Positions 1 to 4,534 of a DNA stretch of 8,535 bases are shown piece after piece. The stretch is from UHGV virus genome UHGV-1434900, one strand, 5' to 3'. The stretch is from a virus. A model generated the notes under the pieces. That model saw only the letters and a list, made by a program, of their open reading frames with translations, searched no databases and had not been told where the DNA came from. Numbering within the stretch: position 1 is the stretch's first letter; every line of letters begins with the position of its first letter. A program made the translations under genes and the position numbers.

Positions 1-513
1 AAATATTGCGATTATTATAAAAAGAATAACAAGTAAAATGCCAAAGCTAAATGCCGCTATTCTCTCGTGTGCTTTTGTCAATTTTTCTTTTCCTTTATTG
101 TCAAATCCATATACTGGCATATCTTCATTAACGAAAAGATTCCTTATTTCTTTTGCAGAACGTTTGTCATGGGCTTTTACTATCCTTTGCATTGAAGCAA
201 AAGCAGTGGAGCTTGGTTTAATACTATTATCATTCATTACCTCTCTATATTTTTTGTAATGAGCTAAGATAAGGTGAAGAACATCAATGCATGTTTCTGC
301 AAGCCATTGATTCCATTGAGTATTATTTAATTCATCTACTGTTCTGTTATGTGCAGCGCAGTGTTCTAAATAGCCGAAAAAACTGTCTCCACATGAATTC
401 ACGGTATCAAAATCACATTTACCAGATAGGTAACACTCTAATGACTCAGTATATTTTTCATATAAACGCTCAATTTCTTTTTTTTGATTATCAATGATAC
501 CGTGAACATCCAT
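1..513 (-). CDS. Hypothetical protein, partial (open through window start); at least 171 aa, hydrophobic segment AFSFGILLVILFIIIAIF at the window edge
   Basis: Hand translation of the - strand from ATG at 513-511 gives 171 codons with no stop down to position 1 (MDVHGIIDNQKKEIERLYEKY...). Absent from the ORF track, probably because no stop lies in the window. No strong SD. The + strand ORFs 38-259 and 291-497 are its antisense shadows. Confidence 0.45.
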   Translation of the reverse strand, partial: MDVHGIIDNQKKEIERLYEKYTESLECYLSGKCDFDTVNSCGDSFFGYLEHCAAHNRTVDELNNTQWNQWLAETCIDVLHLILAHYKKYREVMNDNSIKPSSTAFASMQRIVKAHDKRSAKEIRNLFVNEDMPVYGFDNKGKEKLTKAHERIAAFSFGILLVILFIIIAIF

Positions 514-524
514 ATCTGATTTCA

Positions 525-800
525 CTATCTTTTTTGTTGAGTGTTATTTGACTGGGATTGAATTTTTGCCAATAGCGAACTTGCTTTCGATGTATTCAAT
601 CCATTACAAATCATTCTTGTAATCGGTTTTTTGTAAATTCGATGAACGATATTTTCAACTTCAGTGATGCTTTCATTGCCACTGAGTTTTTTTATCTCAT
701 TGAACATCTCCTCCAATTGTTCATTTGTTGGATGCCATTTGATTATATCTAATTCTTCCTCTAATGCTTTTTTAAAAAGGAAAACCTGAAAAGATAACAT
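525..800 (-). CDS. Hypothetical protein, 91 aa
   Basis: ORF with ATG at 800-798 preceded by AGGAAAG-type SD that lies in the last codons of the upstream ORF (coupling); AT-rich codon usage consistent with neighbours; no recognisable family. Confidence 0.5.
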   Translation of the reverse strand: MLSFQVFLFKKALEEELDIIKWHPTNEQLEEMFNEIKKLSGNESITEVENIVHRIYKKPITRMICNGLNTSKASSLLAKIQSQSNNTQQKR

Positions 801-801
801 A

Positions 802-1116
802 TTACTTTCCTTGTGTTGGTTTAGTAGTGGATTGTTGAGCTTTTTCTAAAAGCCTTTTTGCTTTAGATGTGTCCAAACCATCTTGGGCAAAGCCTTGTTG
901 CTTATCATTCTGTTTTTGTTCACTTTTTTTTGGCGTATTCATCAGTATATACTTTGACTCGTTTTGTTTATCTCGATGACTTACTTTTTGTTTAAGTTTT
1001 GCACAAACTAGAACGTGCAGTGTTGGTAATACTGCACGTTTGTACCATTCGTGGTACTTAATCCTTTTGTTTGGCAGACATGAGATCTTCTGCTGCATCT
1101 TTAGAGTAGTTATCAA
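802..1116 (-). CDS. Small lysine/glutamine-rich hypothetical protein; start uncertain (full ORF 104 aa; internal ATG at 942-940 would give 46 aa)
   Basis: ORF ends 1 nt before the next ORF start; its C-terminal tail (GLDTSKAKRLLEKAQQ) resembles the tail of the 525-800 product (GLNTSKASSLLAKIQ), with matching DNA similarity. The 5' part overlaps the 1058-1240 gene and a palindrome, so the long form is doubtful. Confidence 0.3.
   Translation of the reverse strand: MITTLKMQQKISCLPNKRIKYHEWYKRAVLPTLHVLVCAKLKQKVSHRDKQNESKYILMNTPKKSEQKQNDKQQGFAQDGLDTSKAKRLLEKAQQSTTKPTQGK
1012..1040. promoter_or_regulatory. Perfect 10-bp inverted repeat (AACGTGCAGT / ACTGCACGTT) with 9-nt spacer; operator or attenuator/terminator hairpin
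   Basis: Read directly from sequence; lies just downstream of the RHH-like gene on the - strand; no adjacent U-run, so not a classical intrinsic terminator. Confidence 0.35.
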
Positions 1117-1240
1117 TCAGATAACCTAAAATCTCTGTCCATGTAATTGTTTTTCCTAGTTTTACACTGGCATTTATAGCCAGTCGTTCTAGTTTCATTT
1201 TTCTTTCTTCCGTCACGTTATAAGTCGTGCGCTTTGCCAT
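1058..1240 (-). CDS. Small ribbon-helix-helix-like DNA-binding protein (CopG/ParD/Arc-type), 60 aa; candidate regulator or antitoxin
   Basis: MAKRTTYNVTEERKMKLERLAINASVKLGKTITWTEILGYLIDNY fits the beta-strand / helix / G-x-T turn / helix pattern of RHH proteins; divergently oriented to gII. Confidence 0.5.
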   Translation of the reverse strand: MAKRTTYNVTEERKMKLERLAINASVKLGKTITWTEILGYLIDNYSKDAAEDLMSAKQKD

Positions 1241-1367
1241 TTTTTACGCTCGTTCAATGCAATATTTGAAGTGAGTATACATGCTCATGAACTCATATCA
1301 TCCAAGCCTCTTGAACTCACTAGCTCACTGATGTAATGTTAAAACACTAATGAACTACTGAACTCAT
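1241..1367. promoter_or_regulatory. Divergent control region between the RHH gene and gII, with four direct TGAACT(C/A)(A/C)(T/C) repeats (1288-1296, 1312-1320, 1351-1359, 1359-1367) and a candidate sigma70 promoter toward gII (TTGAAC 1311-1316, 17-nt spacer, TAATGT 1334-1339)
   Basis: Repeats and promoter-like hexamers read from sequence; function is inferred (operator/iteron set and gII promoter). Confidence 0.4.
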
Positions 1368-2462
1368 GTGTTAGTAAGTCGTCATTTTTGCAATTTTGAG
1401 GATTTATTCGTGATCGATTGGCTTACCGGGATTTTCCCTTGCACACACAAACCGCTTCCGGCGGGGAGTGTTGTCAGCGTTGATGCTGACGGTGCAATTG
1501 AGTGGGAAACCGTTAAGCGACTGACTGTTCGCGGCTCGCATGAAGCAACGATGAAAGTACGATCGATAGGATCTAATGGCGAAGGTAAAGCGACACATTT
1601 GTACATTGATGGTAATCCGTCCAAGTTTTTGCAGGGGCATTCTGTTGTTGGGTCGGATGATATACAAGGGCTCATGTTGACGGTCTATGCCAGGATTTTA
1701 TCCTTATTGAATATTCCTCATGATTTAGCGTCTTATAAAGCTGTTATAGCAGGTCAGTATAAAATTTCACGTGTTGACATTAATTACATGTATTCATTAT
1801 CTACGCTAGAAAATGTCAGATCATGGCTTTATGCCGCCGAATTTAAAGCTAAAACACGCCATGGTCGCGCATGTGGGAAAGGCGGTACAGTTTATTTAGG
1901 TAAAAACTCCCGTCGATGGAGTCTGAAATTTTATTCAAAATATGATGAACACGTTTCGGGTAAAAAAGGGCACCAGATAGCCGAAGATTTTGTACGAGCC
2001 GGGTTACTGGACTGGACGAAAGATAAATTACGTATTGAATTAACATTAAGAACAACTGAGCTTATTGATTTAAATTTAACGCTTGGCGCTAACTGGAATA
2101 TGAAAACACCACGTCAATTATTCTCTGAATATGTAGGGAGAATAGAAATGAATCAGAATGCTATTTTAAGTGATGAAAAAATAACGAAACTGCCAAGAAA
2201 AATACAGTCAACTTATTTACTTTGGAAACAAGGGGCTAACATGAAAGAAATGTTACCTCATAACACTTTTTATCGCCATAGAAGAGAATTGCTTTCGTTC
2301 GGTATCGATATTAATTTCTATTGTGATTCACCAGACTCTAATAACGTTGTTCCGCTAATAAGAACGCTGGAAGCCAAGCCAGTGGAAATCCCCTTATGGA
2401 TTTATGAGAAAGGTTTTATTTTCGATTACAACCGTATTTCGCACGCCAGTAGCTGGCATTAA
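1368..2462 (+). CDS. gII: Gene II protein: rolling-circle replication initiator (nickase)
   Basis: Translation resembles Ff pII along its length (e.g. PSKFLQGHSVVG vs PAKVLQGHNVFG; C-terminal NNVVPLIR vs NNVVPLVR). No in-frame ATG until codon 62; the ORF opens with GTG at 1368 (no SD), and an in-frame GTG at 1410 has a good SD (GAGGA 1398-1402), so the true start may be 1410. Confidence 0.85.
   Translation: MLVSRHFCNFEDLFVIDWLTGIFPCTHKPLPAGSVVSVDADGAIEWETVKRLTVRGSHEATMKVRSIGSNGEGKATHLYIDGNPSKFLQGHSVVGSDDIQGLMLTVYARILSLLNIPHDLASYKAVIAGQYKISRVDINYMYSLSTLENVRSWLYAAEFKAKTRHGRACGKGGTVYLGKNSRRWSLKFYSKYDEHVSGKKGHQIAEDFVRAGLLDWTKDKLRIELTLRTTELIDLNLTLGANWNMKTPRQLFSEYVGRIEMNQNAILSDEKITKLPRKIQSTYLLWKQGANMKEMLPHNTFYRHRRELLSFGIDINFYCDSPDSNNVVPLIRTLEAKPVEIPLWIYEKGFIFDYNRISHASSWH
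2148..2462 (+). CDS. gX: Gene X protein: in-frame internal restart within gII, C-terminal 104 aa
   Basis: Internal ATG at 2148 preceded by GGGAGA (2134-2139); aligns with the Ff gX start (EMNQNAILSD vs SMNIYDDSAVLD). By analogy to Ff. Confidence 0.55.
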   Translation: MNQNAILSDEKITKLPRKIQSTYLLWKQGANMKEMLPHNTFYRHRRELLSFGIDINFYCDSPDSNNVVPLIRTLEAKPVEIPLWIYEKGFIFDYNRISHASSWH

Positions 2463-3283: not shown

Positions 3284-4534
3284 ATGAAAAGGAAAATATT
3301 AATTCTTTCCGCTGTCCTCATTTCTCCTTTTTCACATGCTGAGTCATGGGAAAGCATTACTAAATCCACTTATCAAAGCTCTGCCTACGCTGAAAGTAAG
3401 CAAATAACCAATCAGGATGGCTCTAAGTCAACGGTTTACTATATTGATGCTGCTATGCAGGCCTCCGCTTGTCAGGGTGCTAAATCCAGTGCTCAGAGTG
3501 TATTTACTCAGGTTAAACCAACTTATGAGGGTATCTGGCCTGATTCTGAATTCCGTCTTGTTTTTACTGGTGATTGTACTTACAGCGATTCACCAGGGCA
3601 GAAGGATAAATATTGGTCTTTAACGGCTTATATTGTTGGTGATATTCAGCGTTCTGTTCCTGATGAAAAACCTACTGACCCGACACCAGAAGAAATTTGT
3701 GAAGCGAAGCCGCCAGAAGAAGGTGTATTTAATAATGTTGATTCATATGATGGTGGTCGTTATATCTACTATAACGGCTGTGAATATGAGGCTACTGGTG
3801 TCATTGTTTGTCAGGGTGATGGTACTGTTTGCGCTGCAACATGGAAGCCTACAGGTACTGTAGCTGACCCCTCTGATAAACCCTCAACCCCCCAAAATGG
3901 TGGTGGTGAGTCTGGCGGTGGTGAGTCTGGCGGTGGTGAGTCCGGTGGCGGTAGTTCTGGCGGTGGTGAGTCCGGTGGCGGTAGTTCTGGCGGTGGCTTT
4001 AGTGGTTCCAGTCTTTCTAAAGGTGATATTCAGTCTGCTATCGAAGGTGCTTCACCCAAAATAGCCAGCGATATTCATGATAAATTAACGGAGAAAGACA
4101 CTTCATCAGATGATAAAAAAAATGCCGATGAACAAACTAGGAATAATATAAATCGTCTTGACGATTCCATTAACAATCTTACGCGGGGGGCTGGCCGTTT
4201 TGCTGACCCTTCAGGTGGTGATTCTCGTTATGGAAAGGGCGACTCTGAATTAGATGGCGCTTCTACTTTGGCTGATTCTGAATTGGGAATTGAAAAGGAT
4301 TCTCACGGTGCTTTATGGGAAGCATTTTTAAATAAAGGTGCTATGCTGCCTAATTTACCCAATGGTAACGGCTGCTCTGATTTTATTATTTTTCCCGGAG
4401 AGGTTTATCAGATTGATATTGGTTGCGATAAATTACTGACTATTAAAGATGTTCTTTCATGGGTTTTTTATTGCCTTACGTTCTGGTATGTCTTTACTTC
4501 TTTAACTTCATTGCTTCGCAAAGGGGGTGAGTGA
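3284..4534 (+). CDS. gIII: Gene III adsorption/minor coat protein (416 aa incl. signal peptide)
   Basis: Signal peptide [19 protein letters not shown]; internal Ff N1-like TolA-binding motif [33 protein letters not shown] (vs Ff RYANYEGCLWNATGVVVCTGDETQCYGTWVPIG); Gly/Ser/Glu linker; C-terminal anchor [17 protein letters not shown]. The ORF-track start at 3140 overlaps gVIII and the terminator and is rejected. Confidence 0.9.
3898..3993 (+). repeat. Coding tandem repeat for the gIII glycine-rich linker (15-bp unit x2 at 3901-3930; perfect 30-bp unit x2 at 3931-3990)
   Basis: Directly visible: ggtggtgagtctggc x2, then ggtggtgagtccggtggcggtagttctggc x2, giving [10 protein letters not shown]...GGGSS. 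Confidence 0.85.

Follow-up and report, generated by a model that had tools for sequence, protein, structure and literature searches.

The window, by which we mean the whole analysed stretch of 8,535 nucleotides, is 100% identical to the chromosome of E. coli F11 beside hipA and represents an inovirus prophage of the CUS-1/YpfPhi type that is integrated at dif in extraintestinal E. coli. Both pathogenic E. coli and Yersinia pestis harbour filamentous prophages at dif. This prophage family and its variable attL-side ORFs have been treated previously (PMC4266046). The following features are present in the window:

1..513, minus strand: first 171 codons of the gene for a 230-aa protein (translation; full gene in F11)
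525..800, minus strand: putative 91-aa cytoplasmic "adaptor" protein (phrog_6502; AF2 model)
802..942, minus strand: basic Lys/Gln-rich protein of 46 aa, pI 9.9 (PGAP call of 46 aa)
1012..1040, no strand: palindrome AACGTGCAGT (1012-1021) / ACTGCACGTT (1031-1040), 10 perfect bp, 9-nt loop
1041..1056, no strand: second short hairpin GTACCA-CGAA-TGGTAC (6 bp), directly after the stop codon of the RHH gene (RNA fold)
1058..1240, minus strand: RHH protein of 60 aa, putative core phage regulator in the place that RstR has in CTXphi (hhalign to ParG, conservation)
1284..1366, no strand: repeats TGAACTCA (TGAGTTCA on the minus strand), 3-4 copies (repeat family D2)
1368..2462, plus strand: rolling-circle replication protein, gII/X family (Pfam Phage_CRI 6e-69, G2P_X_C 5e-29; F11 annotation)
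8011..8038, plus strand: perfect 28-bp dif, i.e. attR and the right prophage border (0 mismatches; none in 200 shuffles)

The Ff-like core extends from the replication gene (1368) as far as the secretin gene at 7243. To its left lies an AT-rich block composed of one phage-core regulator gene and a three-gene cargo cassette (46, 91 and 230 aa). This block is the exchangeable cargo slot of the prophage, which here holds an uncharacterised mobile cassette. The four minus-strand ORFs, the 10-bp palindrome, the low GC content and the hydrophobic segment at the edge that the initial annotation had described are all present. The GC content amounts to 0.32 in the cargo, 0.41 in the phage core and 0.47-0.49 in the host flanks. 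A blastn search of phage records with positions 1-1400 returned no match, and megablast with the full window matched only short stretches of pIV in IKe and PEar phages. Moreover, we found no paper naming the four RefSeq protein accessions.

The small Lys/Gln-rich ORF exists, and its gene model had to be corrected to 802-942. The reading of 98/104 aa (to 1116) is an artefact of a frame that stays open across the conserved junction. The first 30 residues of this longer reading are fused to an unrelated protein at another locus (L004). The proposed stop-start coupling with the 91-aa ORF was found as TAA-T-ATG, in which the ATG of the 91-aa gene lies one base past the TAA of the 46-aa gene, and the two genes are accordingly predicted to be translationally coupled. 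The edge ORF of at least 171 aa could be completed by leftward extension, for which E. coli F11 provided the sequence: the gene runs 180 nt beyond the left window edge and encodes 230 aa. In F11 (NZ_CP076123.1), the cassette with its flanks, from the terminator on the attL side to the junction hairpin, spans about 1646650-1647930. The hydrophobic segment noticed at the edge is the first of three membrane helices and the only one inside the window. All three cargo genes are under purifying selection, with dN/dS values of 0.07-0.33 in unsaturated comparisons (46-aa gene, 0.08-0.10 versus Dickeya and Pectobacterium; 91-aa gene, 0.17-0.27). Judged by these values, the three ORFs are real genes.

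The assignment of the 60-aa protein to the RHH proteins was borne out by profile comparison. An hhalign run of a 32-sequence family profile against ParG gave a probability of 81.7% (E = 1.1e-5, residues 31-74), and the alignment spans the strand, helix A and helix B. The ParG sequence in this comparison, which we take to be that of 1p94, agrees with the PDB match. Indeed, ParG was the sole match when the PDB was searched by hmmsearch with the same profile (E = 0.56), and the Pfam ParG family produced weak matches in 9 of the 32 family members. Searching the PDB with a single sequence or with a 6-sequence profile gave no match, and the protein stays under the threshold of every Pfam family. Two loci from the RHH search (L008, L009) were discarded as spurious matches inside a metabolic gene.

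The RHH gene (minus strand) is divergent from the Rep gene (plus strand) and lies next to the intergenic control region, which is the arrangement known for RstR. An Xre-type HTH fold as in RstR was not detected, since the 60-aa protein matched no HTH family and has its closest relation among the RHH proteins. In a related inovirus (L021), the regulator position is occupied by a 163-aa HTH protein. The TGAGTTCA repeats are candidate operators for the RHH protein. The TGAACTCA motif accompanies the RHH gene also in L007, which has a different Rep gene, and a promoter scan located a promoter-like element with the -10 sequence TATACT (1274-1301, minus strand) adjoining the repeats. Probably, the RHH protein represses the divergent replication promoter via the TGAGTTCA repeats. 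It resembles ParG and other RHH repressors in its small size and in the short repeated DNA motifs of the adjoining promoter region. In contrast to ParG, it has neither the flexible N-terminal tail nor a partition partner, and it occupies a phage regulatory position.

The RHH protein is 88-100% conserved in related prophages whose downstream genes are unrelated, and the identical protein occurs in >1000 contigs. In sister prophages, five different cargos were found behind the same RHH gene and hairpin. Because the gene is conserved with unrelated downstream cargos, it belongs to the phage core and lies outside the cassette, and it appears to be the phage's own regulator. The view that it leads a four-gene operon had to be abandoned: it is a core gene combined with unrelated cargos, and the cassette also occurs without it. 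The junction itself is structured. As minus-strand RNA, both hairpins together fold with -22.6 kcal/mol (z = -4.3), which none of 200 shuffled sequences achieved. The hairpin at 1041-1056 is conserved in the alignment of loci with different cargos, and the homology among five such loci ends right after the palindrome, at about position 1010. In Dickeya and Pectobacterium, a different hairpin is located in the same place. The palindrome marks the boundary at which the conserved core gives way to variable cargo. Following the regulator gene, it probably acts as a leaky terminator, as an attenuator or as an RNA 3' hairpin. If it were a terminator, the cargo could need its own promoter; the promoter scan found no cargo-specific promoter above chance.

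On the far side, the slot is bounded by about 100 bp at the left prophage end that contain an attP remnant and a terminator. These roughly 100 bp are common to both prophage copies of F11 despite their different cargos. The site at 8011-8038 is the only dif-like site in the window, and attL was located beyond the 230-aa gene on the left, about 100 bp away from where the cargo ends. In the initial annotation, it was considered that the block could be a second element integrated in tandem at dif, i.e. a separate Xer-dependent element (IMEX or satellite) next to the prophage. In this family, prophages do form tandem arrays at dif, and in F11 the second prophage copy directly follows the first (PMC4266046 for the family). 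However, no dif-like site with up to 3 mismatches exists between the cargo and the phage core, attL is outside the cargo, prophage copies with different cargos have the left end in common, and neither a replication nor a recombination gene is present in the cargo. As the block is not bracketed by a pair of dif-like sites of its own, we reject a tandem element, to which we assign a negligible probability.

By comparing the GC content and the synteny with related prophages, as had been suggested, it became evident that low-GC cargo is swapped between conserved flanks. The block shows the accessory nature initially proposed for it, being located in a hypervariable prophage slot, and it displays the properties of a hotspot: variable genes between conserved flanks in near-identical prophages, with the regulator adjacent and the prophage border nearby. 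As a published precedent, an accessory hotspot by the regulator near the border has been described for filamentous prophages, which often carries defence or TA genes (PMC11630473). The hotspot of the Vibrionaceae is likewise a single variable locus whose conserved flanks permit exchange and whose content is often unannotated and sometimes consists of defence or TA genes; it differs in host family and phage lineage, and the cassette is not among its annotated systems (PMC11630473). A closer relation exists to CUS-1 and YpfPhi. Both belong to the same phage family and integrate at dif, YPO2273 is the regulator in the RstR position, and the variable attL-adjacent ORFs by the divergent regulator (orf1/orf1a in CUS-1, YPO2271/YPO2272 in YpfPhi) are, like the cargo described here, listed without homologues or assigned function (PMC4266046). 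The present cargo is probably a third alternative to these end ORFs. Classic O18:K1:H7 strains are absent by name from the strains listed with the cassette, which likely differs from CUS-1 orf1/orf1a.

Cassette copies with 28-85% identity are known from at least five inovirus backbones, in which they directly follow the regulator gene. These include inoviruses of Dickeya and Pectobacterium, and in one inovirus (L021) the cassette is located behind the different, HTH-type regulator. It was also detected in a metagenomic inovirus, and copies without any regulator nearby exist as well. Outside the inoviruses, the P2-like phage OU784750 carries a two-gene version with 27-28% identity between G and FI, where it replaces Fun(Z) in the same orientation; here, just one small gene accompanies the membrane-protein gene. 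A tblastn search of phage records with the 230-aa protein only identified OU784750 and NC_070905, and canonical P2 (AF063097) was unmatched. Furthermore, a copy in Proteus adjoins an nSTAND3 gene, one copy is situated in an island that also contains AbiJ/Abi_C and a toxin deaminase, one on a plasmid-like contig with Abi_2, ParA and a resolvase, and one beside a HEPN and HTH pair. This association with defence genes is drawn from about 12 contexts and not from a statistical survey. The GC content of the cassette is 4-17 points under that of the flanks in low-GC, mainly enterobacterial loci (L002, L010-L012, L016-L018, L021, L023), and the gap is smaller (1-6 points) in two high-GC loci. Judged by these contexts, the cassette is self-contained and mobile across inoviruses, P2-like phages, plasmids and defence-type islands.

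This distribution bears on the idea that the module serves the inovirus itself, for example in virion production, in superinfection immunity against related filamentous phages at the Tol or inner-membrane step or in replication control, and that the RHH protein is devoted to its regulation. Such a role would be in line with the position right after the regulator gene in five inovirus backbones and with the partial protection against superinfection that a resident YpfPhi is reported to give (PMC4266046). However, sister prophages, including the second copy in the same F11 chromosome, have the same RHH protein and unrelated cargos, and the cassette also follows a non-RHH regulator and is found outside inoviruses. 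We therefore consider a role in the life of the inovirus unlikely.

In the 230-aa protein, residues about 3-129 form a cytoplasmic bundle of five helices. Behind it come three membrane helices, which the AF2 model (pLDDT 81) places at 147-171, 177-197 and 208-229. The protein belongs to the function-unassigned PHROGs family phrog_5814 (E = 6e-104). The three-helix (3TM) module is rich in Gly, Ala and Pro, contains the conserved sequence IPNPT ... RAGGALAVF and probably oligomerises. Although present in 2,979 protein clusters, where it is fused at the N-terminus, in the middle or at the C-terminus, the module is in no curated library (absent from Pfam and PADLOC). Fusions with TIR were observed in 2 of 90 cases, and PADLOC matches of the 3TM relatives arise solely via the fused TIR domains. 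Many fusion partners are extracytoplasmic-type domains such as CarboxypepD_reg, SPOR, PEGA and Ig-like domains. The module could also be a plain membrane anchor because two additional contexts of the 3TM module alone are not defence-like.

The 91-aa protein, whose orthologues adjoin the 230-aa gene in every case, is modelled (AF2, pLDDT 71) with a small N-domain of three helices, which includes a W-x-PT motif; a linker connects this domain to the C-terminal helix, on which GLNTSKASSLLAK is located. The mostly disordered 46-aa protein comprises little beyond the same tail motif (FAQDGLDTSKAKRLLEK) and is a truncated paralogue of the 91-aa protein. The likeness of the tails is evident from the DNA repeat D1 and from BLASTP of the tails. 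The 46-aa protein is conserved with 42-55 aa in 7 loci, and L022 contains a full-length paralogue. The tail motif GLDTSKAxxLL, which is common to both small proteins, changes in step across lineages, and position 6 of the motif co-varies between the 46-aa and the 91-aa proteins (K/K, T/T, D/D), with D in the L013/L022 lineage. The motif resembles the turn and recognition helix of some HTH proteins; this assignment was not adopted, as the 46-aa protein has no preceding helices and no HTH model matched.

According to the initial annotation, the proteins have no Ff counterpart and belong to no recognised family, and searches of Pfam, NCBIfam, PADLOC and the PDB agree with this statement. The cargo proteins yielded nothing above noise in Pfam, NCBIfam and PADLOC (P2 response-regulator domain, thermolysin, RecX, EscR, Csx27) and no recognised family in the PDB. 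The Csx27 match in PADLOC-DB 2.0 (E = 0.0056) covers the membrane helices of the 230-aa protein and was judged compositional. Likewise, no cassette protein matches a known toxin, antitoxin, defence or structural family in Pfam, NCBIfam or PADLOC. Fold searches with the models of the cassette proteins returned generic helical bundles only, or nothing; with Foldseek, a cassette-protein model had no match below E = 0.8 among viral structures, and the 91-aa model had none below E = 1.5 in the PDB.

Two known exclusion systems are instructive for the interpretation of the cassette. In the lambda cI-rexA-rexB operon, the exclusion genes are located directly downstream of the repressor gene, they encode a cytoplasmic partner and a polytopic inner-membrane protein, and they form an AT-rich moron. 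The cassette resembles rexA-rexB in its placement after a regulator gene, in its cytoplasmic and membrane partners and in its AT-richness. In contrast to RexAB, it has three membrane helices rather than four, the paired small proteins with a shared tail have no Rex equivalent, and sequence or profile similarity does not exist; PHROGs and Pfam gave function-unassigned families only. The second system is Fun(Z), the lysogenic-conversion and exclusion gene in the Z region of P2. Fun/Z confers exclusion of T5 and of many further phages (PMC8594841). Fun(Z) is a single 528-aa protein that is unrelated to the cassette, and the slot between G and FI is the shared feature. The gene pair of OU784750 cannot be Fun(Z) itself, as canonical P2 has the unrelated 528-aa protein and OU784750 lacks the sequence of one of the two primers published for cloning Fun/Z.

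The mobility of the cassette, the related pair in the Z/fun slot of P2 and the AbiJ/Abi_C, Abi_2, nSTAND3 and HEPN neighbours make the cassette a candidate for an exclusion, abortive-infection or TA-like module. The initial classification as a defence, exclusion or toxin-antitoxin type of module is reasonable in so far as it names a candidate, and the anti-phage role is a part that we infer. A rival explanation is a pure addiction or stabilisation module, in which a membrane toxin and two small labile antitoxins would retain an unstable inovirus, plasmid or island rather than defend against other phages. The small genes come first, their translation is coupled and the larger membrane protein comes last, which fits the order of type II toxin-antitoxin systems, an arrangement that is not specific for TA. 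Moreover, the 46-aa protein has a basic pI and is disordered for the most part, and one copy of the cassette accompanies ParA and a resolvase on the plasmid-like contig. YpfPhi-type inoviruses have been described as unstable episomes (PMC4266046), and among the annotated cargos of Vibrio filamentous prophages, TA genes are the most frequent (PMC11630473). By contrast, the cassette proteins have no likeness to a known toxin or antitoxin family, the P2-like phage has a single small gene, and the Z/fun slot is known for an exclusion gene and not for stability. Pure addiction is in our opinion unlikely; TA and abortive infection are not mutually exclusive, and this explanation overlaps with the preferred one of a membrane module acting against phages.

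It is also conceivable that the cassette is a lysogenic-conversion or host-fitness factor outside phage conflict, for instance an envelope-modifying or signalling membrane protein in extraintestinal E. coli. A contribution of CUS-1/YpfPhi prophages to fitness with modest effects on virulence has been reported, and the end ORFs are without assigned function (PMC4266046). Among 5,426 complete E. coli genomes, 22 contain the cassette, and 19 of these 22 records give human host or human urine as the source. The fusions of the 3TM module with extracytoplasmic-type domains are also compatible with such a factor. However, the presence of the cassette in the plant pathogens Dickeya and Pectobacterium as well as in Proteus, environmental metagenomes and a P2-like phage argues for a host-independent role, and a function limited to host fitness seems rather improbable to us.

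Our best guess, for which the evidence is circumstantial, is that the cassette is a regulated membrane effector in exclusion or abortive infection. In this scenario, the cassette would be co-transcribed in the lysogen, with transcripts that start at the regulator promoter reading through into it. The 230-aa protein would be held in the inner membrane by the three-helix module, likely as an oligomer, and its cytoplasmic bundle would physically dock the C-terminal helix that both small proteins (91 and 46 aa) have in common. The two small proteins would either restrain the membrane protein or compete for it. An infecting phage might then upset the supply or the binding of the small proteins, whereupon the membrane module would disturb the envelope or the membrane potential. 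This damage to the membrane would finally block the entry of the phage or abort the infection. Taken as a whole, the explanation that the cassette is a RexAB-like or toxin-antitoxin-like membrane module acting in exclusion or abortive infection has in our estimate a probability of about 40%. A bolder version, which we put forward as possible and yet doubtful, holds that the cassette represents a new type of anti-phage or abortive-infection system in which two paralogous adaptors offer the same docking helix to the cytoplasmic domain of a pore-forming 3TM effector. Competition between the adaptors or a decoy would provide the trigger, and the 3TM module (IPNPT...RAGGALAVFVIVYF) would be a widespread, unrecognised conflict effector.

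To our knowledge, the end genes of filamentous prophages at dif have been listed under "unknown function" for twenty years. The left prophage end can now be described as a defined exchange slot, and the cassette is a 1.2-kb candidate for what such prophages give to their hosts. Even if the cassette turns out not to be anti-phage, the gene models and the operon picture of the prophage family are corrected. If the cassette blocks other phages, it would add a new system to the defence catalogue and provide a function for a large orphan family of membrane modules. Moreover, the rule that prophage hotspots carry defence, which applies to tailed phages and to inoviruses of Vibrio, would then also cover enterobacterial inoviruses.

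The plus-strand genes follow an Ff/IKe-like order (replication protein, ssDNA-binding protein, major coat, pIII-like, pVI-like, Zot/pI-like and secretin in the ORF map), and the replication protein (Rep) matches the Pfam families Phage_CRI and G2P_X_C. In 22 complete E. coli genomes, the chromosome contains a sequence with 100% identity to positions 1-1400; one of these genomes is that of the uropathogenic strain F11 (NZ_CP076123.1), in which the prophage is located directly after hipA. The organisation matches the CUS-1/YpfPhi family as reviewed by Derbise and Carniel (PMC4266046). According to this review, the attL-adjacent ORFs of YpfPhi and CUS-1 differ, lack homologues and are of unknown function, and the gene in the RstR position is a putative, untested repressor. 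The perfect dif site followed by a host gene fragment indicates that the prophage in the window is a single one or else the last of an array.

Features of the window and of the F11 locus (L001)
525-800, minus strand: 91-aa ORF of the cassette
802-942, minus strand: 46-aa small gene of the cassette (PGAP call)
1012-1040: palindrome AACGTGCAGT/ACTGCACGTT
1058-1240, minus strand: 60-aa ribbon-helix-helix (RHH) gene
1284-1366: divergent promoter region between the RHH and Rep genes, with 3-4 copies of TGAGTTCA
8011-8038: perfect 28-bp dif site, right prophage border
8226-8516, minus strand: fragment of a host LysR-type regulator gene, beyond dif
L001 11724-11812: hybrid attL and terminator, about 190-280 nt beyond the left edge of the window
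L001 20136-21554: three-gene cargo (123, 155 and 140 aa) of the second tandem prophage copy, whose RHH protein is identical

Two small ORFs (7313-7621 and 7739-7972, both plus strand) are located 3' of the secretin gene, in the position of YPO2280a/YPO2281, for which the literature gives no function either; the 77-aa product of one of them contains two CxxC pairs in a zinc-ribbon-like pattern. The pIII-like gene encodes a glycine-rich GGGESGGGS repeat linker (around 3890-4010, plus strand), where the local GC content rises to 0.53. This gene is intact in the window, and the F11 copy is annotated as frameshifted.

The initial annotation described an AT-rich minus-strand module of four genes led by the RHH gene at 1-1240, and all of the elements that it named were found there. 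The GC content of the cargo is 0.32, that of the phage core 0.41 and that of the host flanks 0.47-0.49. The ATG of the 91-aa ORF lies one base past the preceding TAA, and the ORF cut by the left edge, whose end there is hydrophobic, could be completed from F11 to a protein of 230 aa. The Lys/Gln-rich small ORF corresponds to a real gene model of 46 aa. A longer reading of 98 or 104 aa (802-1116, minus strand), which overlaps the end of the RHH gene and the palindrome and whose length is modelled by PHROG 6875, was rejected as a gene-calling artefact because the frame just stays open across a conserved junction and, in another locus, leads into an unrelated protein.

The RHH assignment is supported by a family profile (32 members) that aligns with ParG (hhalign probability 82%, E = 1e-5) along the strand and both helices, A and B; ParG is the sole PDB match of this profile and also the commonest weak Pfam match among the members. 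The identical RHH protein is encoded on more than 1000 contigs, and proteins with 88-100% identity occur in Brenneria, Phytobacter, Scandinavium and one further contig, each time with different genes downstream. Moreover, the second tandem prophage of F11 encodes this same RHH protein and has three other genes downstream of it. The RHH gene is therefore phage core and lies outside the cassette. The proposed module stands as accessory DNA and as a fair candidate for an exclusion or toxin-antitoxin-like system, and its supposed lead gene is a phage regulator. The TGAACTCA repeats at 1284-1366 accompany the RHH gene even where the Rep of the prophage is unrelated (L007). We infer that these repeats are candidate operators; they may serve as operators or form part of the plus-strand origin. 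This enterobacterial inovirus, identical in its RHH protein, is also present on a contig labelled as a Candidatus Nanosynbacter (Saccharibacteria) MAG; the contig is almost certainly a binning contaminant.

The DNA alignment revealed that the core homology passes through the RHH stop codon and the palindrome and stops immediately beyond the latter; the 67-aa RHH homologues of Dickeya and Pectobacterium have a different hairpin in the same place. At the other end, just past the stop codon of the 230-aa gene and outside the window, there is a hybrid attL (GGTGCGCATAA-TGTACG...), which retains the XerC arm of dif and has an altered centre followed by a displaced XerD-like arm, TTATGTTGAAA. A strong intrinsic terminator (17-bp stem, -35 kcal/mol, z = -9.1) then ends the cargo operon. 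The roughly 100 bp with attL and terminator are common to both F11 prophage copies despite their different cargos, and the slot thus has conserved sequence on both sides. Together with the lack of any dif-like site inside the slot, this rules out the alternative that the cargo is a separate element integrated in tandem at dif. Filamentous prophages of the Vibrionaceae have the same layout, with a variable locus near the border beside a regulator gene; 8.5% of these loci carry known defence systems in complete form, and the majority of the loci lack annotation (PMC11630473).

Complete copies of the second F11 cargo occur in 15 E. coli genomes, and a part of it (about 81% identity) is present on large APEC/ColV-type plasmids beside an 'ECs_2282 family zinc-binding protein'. 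At L001 20100-20145, a terminator-like hairpin, the first 35-45 nt match about 800 E. coli genomes, including sites just 3' of SIR2-family genes and on many plasmids, and the hairpin hence represents a widely dispersed short sequence.

The cargo of the window is a mobile three-gene cassette, as the trio of 42-55-aa, about 90-aa and about 230-aa proteins recurs in many settings.

Contexts of the cassette
Dickeya zeae and Pectobacterium versatile inoviruses: behind a 67-aa RHH homologue
Metagenomic inovirus: behind a 76-aa RHH homologue
IMG/VR inovirus: behind a 163-aa HTH repressor, small and mid pair duplicated
Proteus mirabilis: beside an nSTAND3 gene, small ORF present though uncalled
Island: with AbiJ/Abi_C, a toxin deaminase and a transposase
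Chromosome: lone insert
Plasmid-like contig: with resolvase, ParA and Abi_2
Diverged cassette (about 35% identity): beside peptidases
Diverged cassette: beside a HEPN plus HTH pair

Defence-family neighbours occur in four of about 12 contexts, which is a small sample. Among 5,426 complete E. coli genomes, 22 carry the cassette, always with at least 99% identity. Purifying selection acts on all three genes (dN/dS 0.07-0.33 in unsaturated comparisons), and in every locus the cassette is AT-richer than its surroundings (the difference is 4-17 GC points in low-GC loci and 1-6 points in the two high-GC loci, L013 and L022). The P2-like phage OU784750 carries a two-gene version, encoding proteins of 85 aa (27% identity) and 233 aa (28% identity, E = 6e-34), with gene G (tail-fibre assembly) on one side and gene FI (sheath) on the other. 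In canonical P2, this slot is instead occupied by the unrelated exclusion gene fun(Z), whose product blocks many phages, T5 among them (PMC8594841).

Duplicated small and mid pairs, or an extra 112-aa mid paralogue, precede the membrane gene in three loci (L016 7111-8687; L021 5111-6687; L018 6230-7703), so that the number of tail-bearing proteins varies from 1 to 4. The small and mid proteins of the Pectobacterium and Dickeya cassettes are 98% and 90% identical, and their membrane proteins just 39%, which indicates recombination within the cassette; the Pectobacterium membrane protein has an N-domain nearer to that of E. coli and divergent membrane helices.

An AF2 model of the 230-aa protein (pLDDT 81) contains five helices (3-129), which are cytoplasmic as judged from the basic residues before the first membrane helix, and membrane helices at 147-171, 177-197 and 208-229. 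The signature of this three-helix module (FxFGVxFV...IPNPT...F(R/K)IxLxLAAAGVAAxIPGF...RAGGALAVFVIVYF) is absent from Pfam and PADLOC. A profile search yielded 2,979 clusters at 50% identity, and the module is 50-60% identical in proteins of unrelated bacteria, where it occupies an N-terminal, central or C-terminal position. The fused domains are mostly unknown; TIR was found in 2 of 90, and TPR, ankyrin, FGE-sulfatase and carboxypeptidase-regulatory domains once or twice each. The 91-aa protein consists of a small three-helix domain and a C-terminal helix, and the basic 46-aa protein (pI 9.9) is almost nothing but this helix. The two tails are homologous in protein and in DNA, and in the diverged L022 lineage the small and mid genes are full-length paralogues. 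The tails also co-vary by lineage (SKA/SKA in six cassettes, STA/STA in L018, SD(L/I or L/V) in L013 and L022). The joint changes point to one common binding partner that co-evolves with the cassette, for which the cytoplasmic bundle of the membrane protein is the most economical candidate.

The explanation ranked first, on circumstantial evidence, is that the cassette encodes a regulated membrane effector expressed by the prophage. In the lysogen, transcription from the regulator promoter would reach the cassette by passing through the junction hairpin or around it, and the shared helix of the small proteins would dock on the cytoplasmic domain of the effector and control it. Phage infection would disturb this control, the three-helix module would then perturb the inner membrane, and the infection would be excluded or aborted. 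The analogue would be the lambda cI-rexA-rexB system or a toxin-antitoxin-type abortive-infection system. This mechanism is favoured by the movement of the cassette between accessory slots in phages of two unrelated types, the defence-family neighbours, the operon layout and the conserved Gly/Ala/Pro-rich membrane module. It is weakened by the lack of homology between the cassette and known systems, by the small number of contexts sampled, and by two contexts of the membrane module alone that are not defence-like. Ranked behind it are the explanations that the cassette is a pure addiction module, that it increases host fitness or that it serves the inovirus itself. Filamentous-prophage accessory hotspots with a conflict-type cassette are already known as a kind. 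The cassette itself, the paired-tail architecture and the membrane module are all undescribed. The cassette is no surprise in principle and is a good, cheap candidate for experiments.
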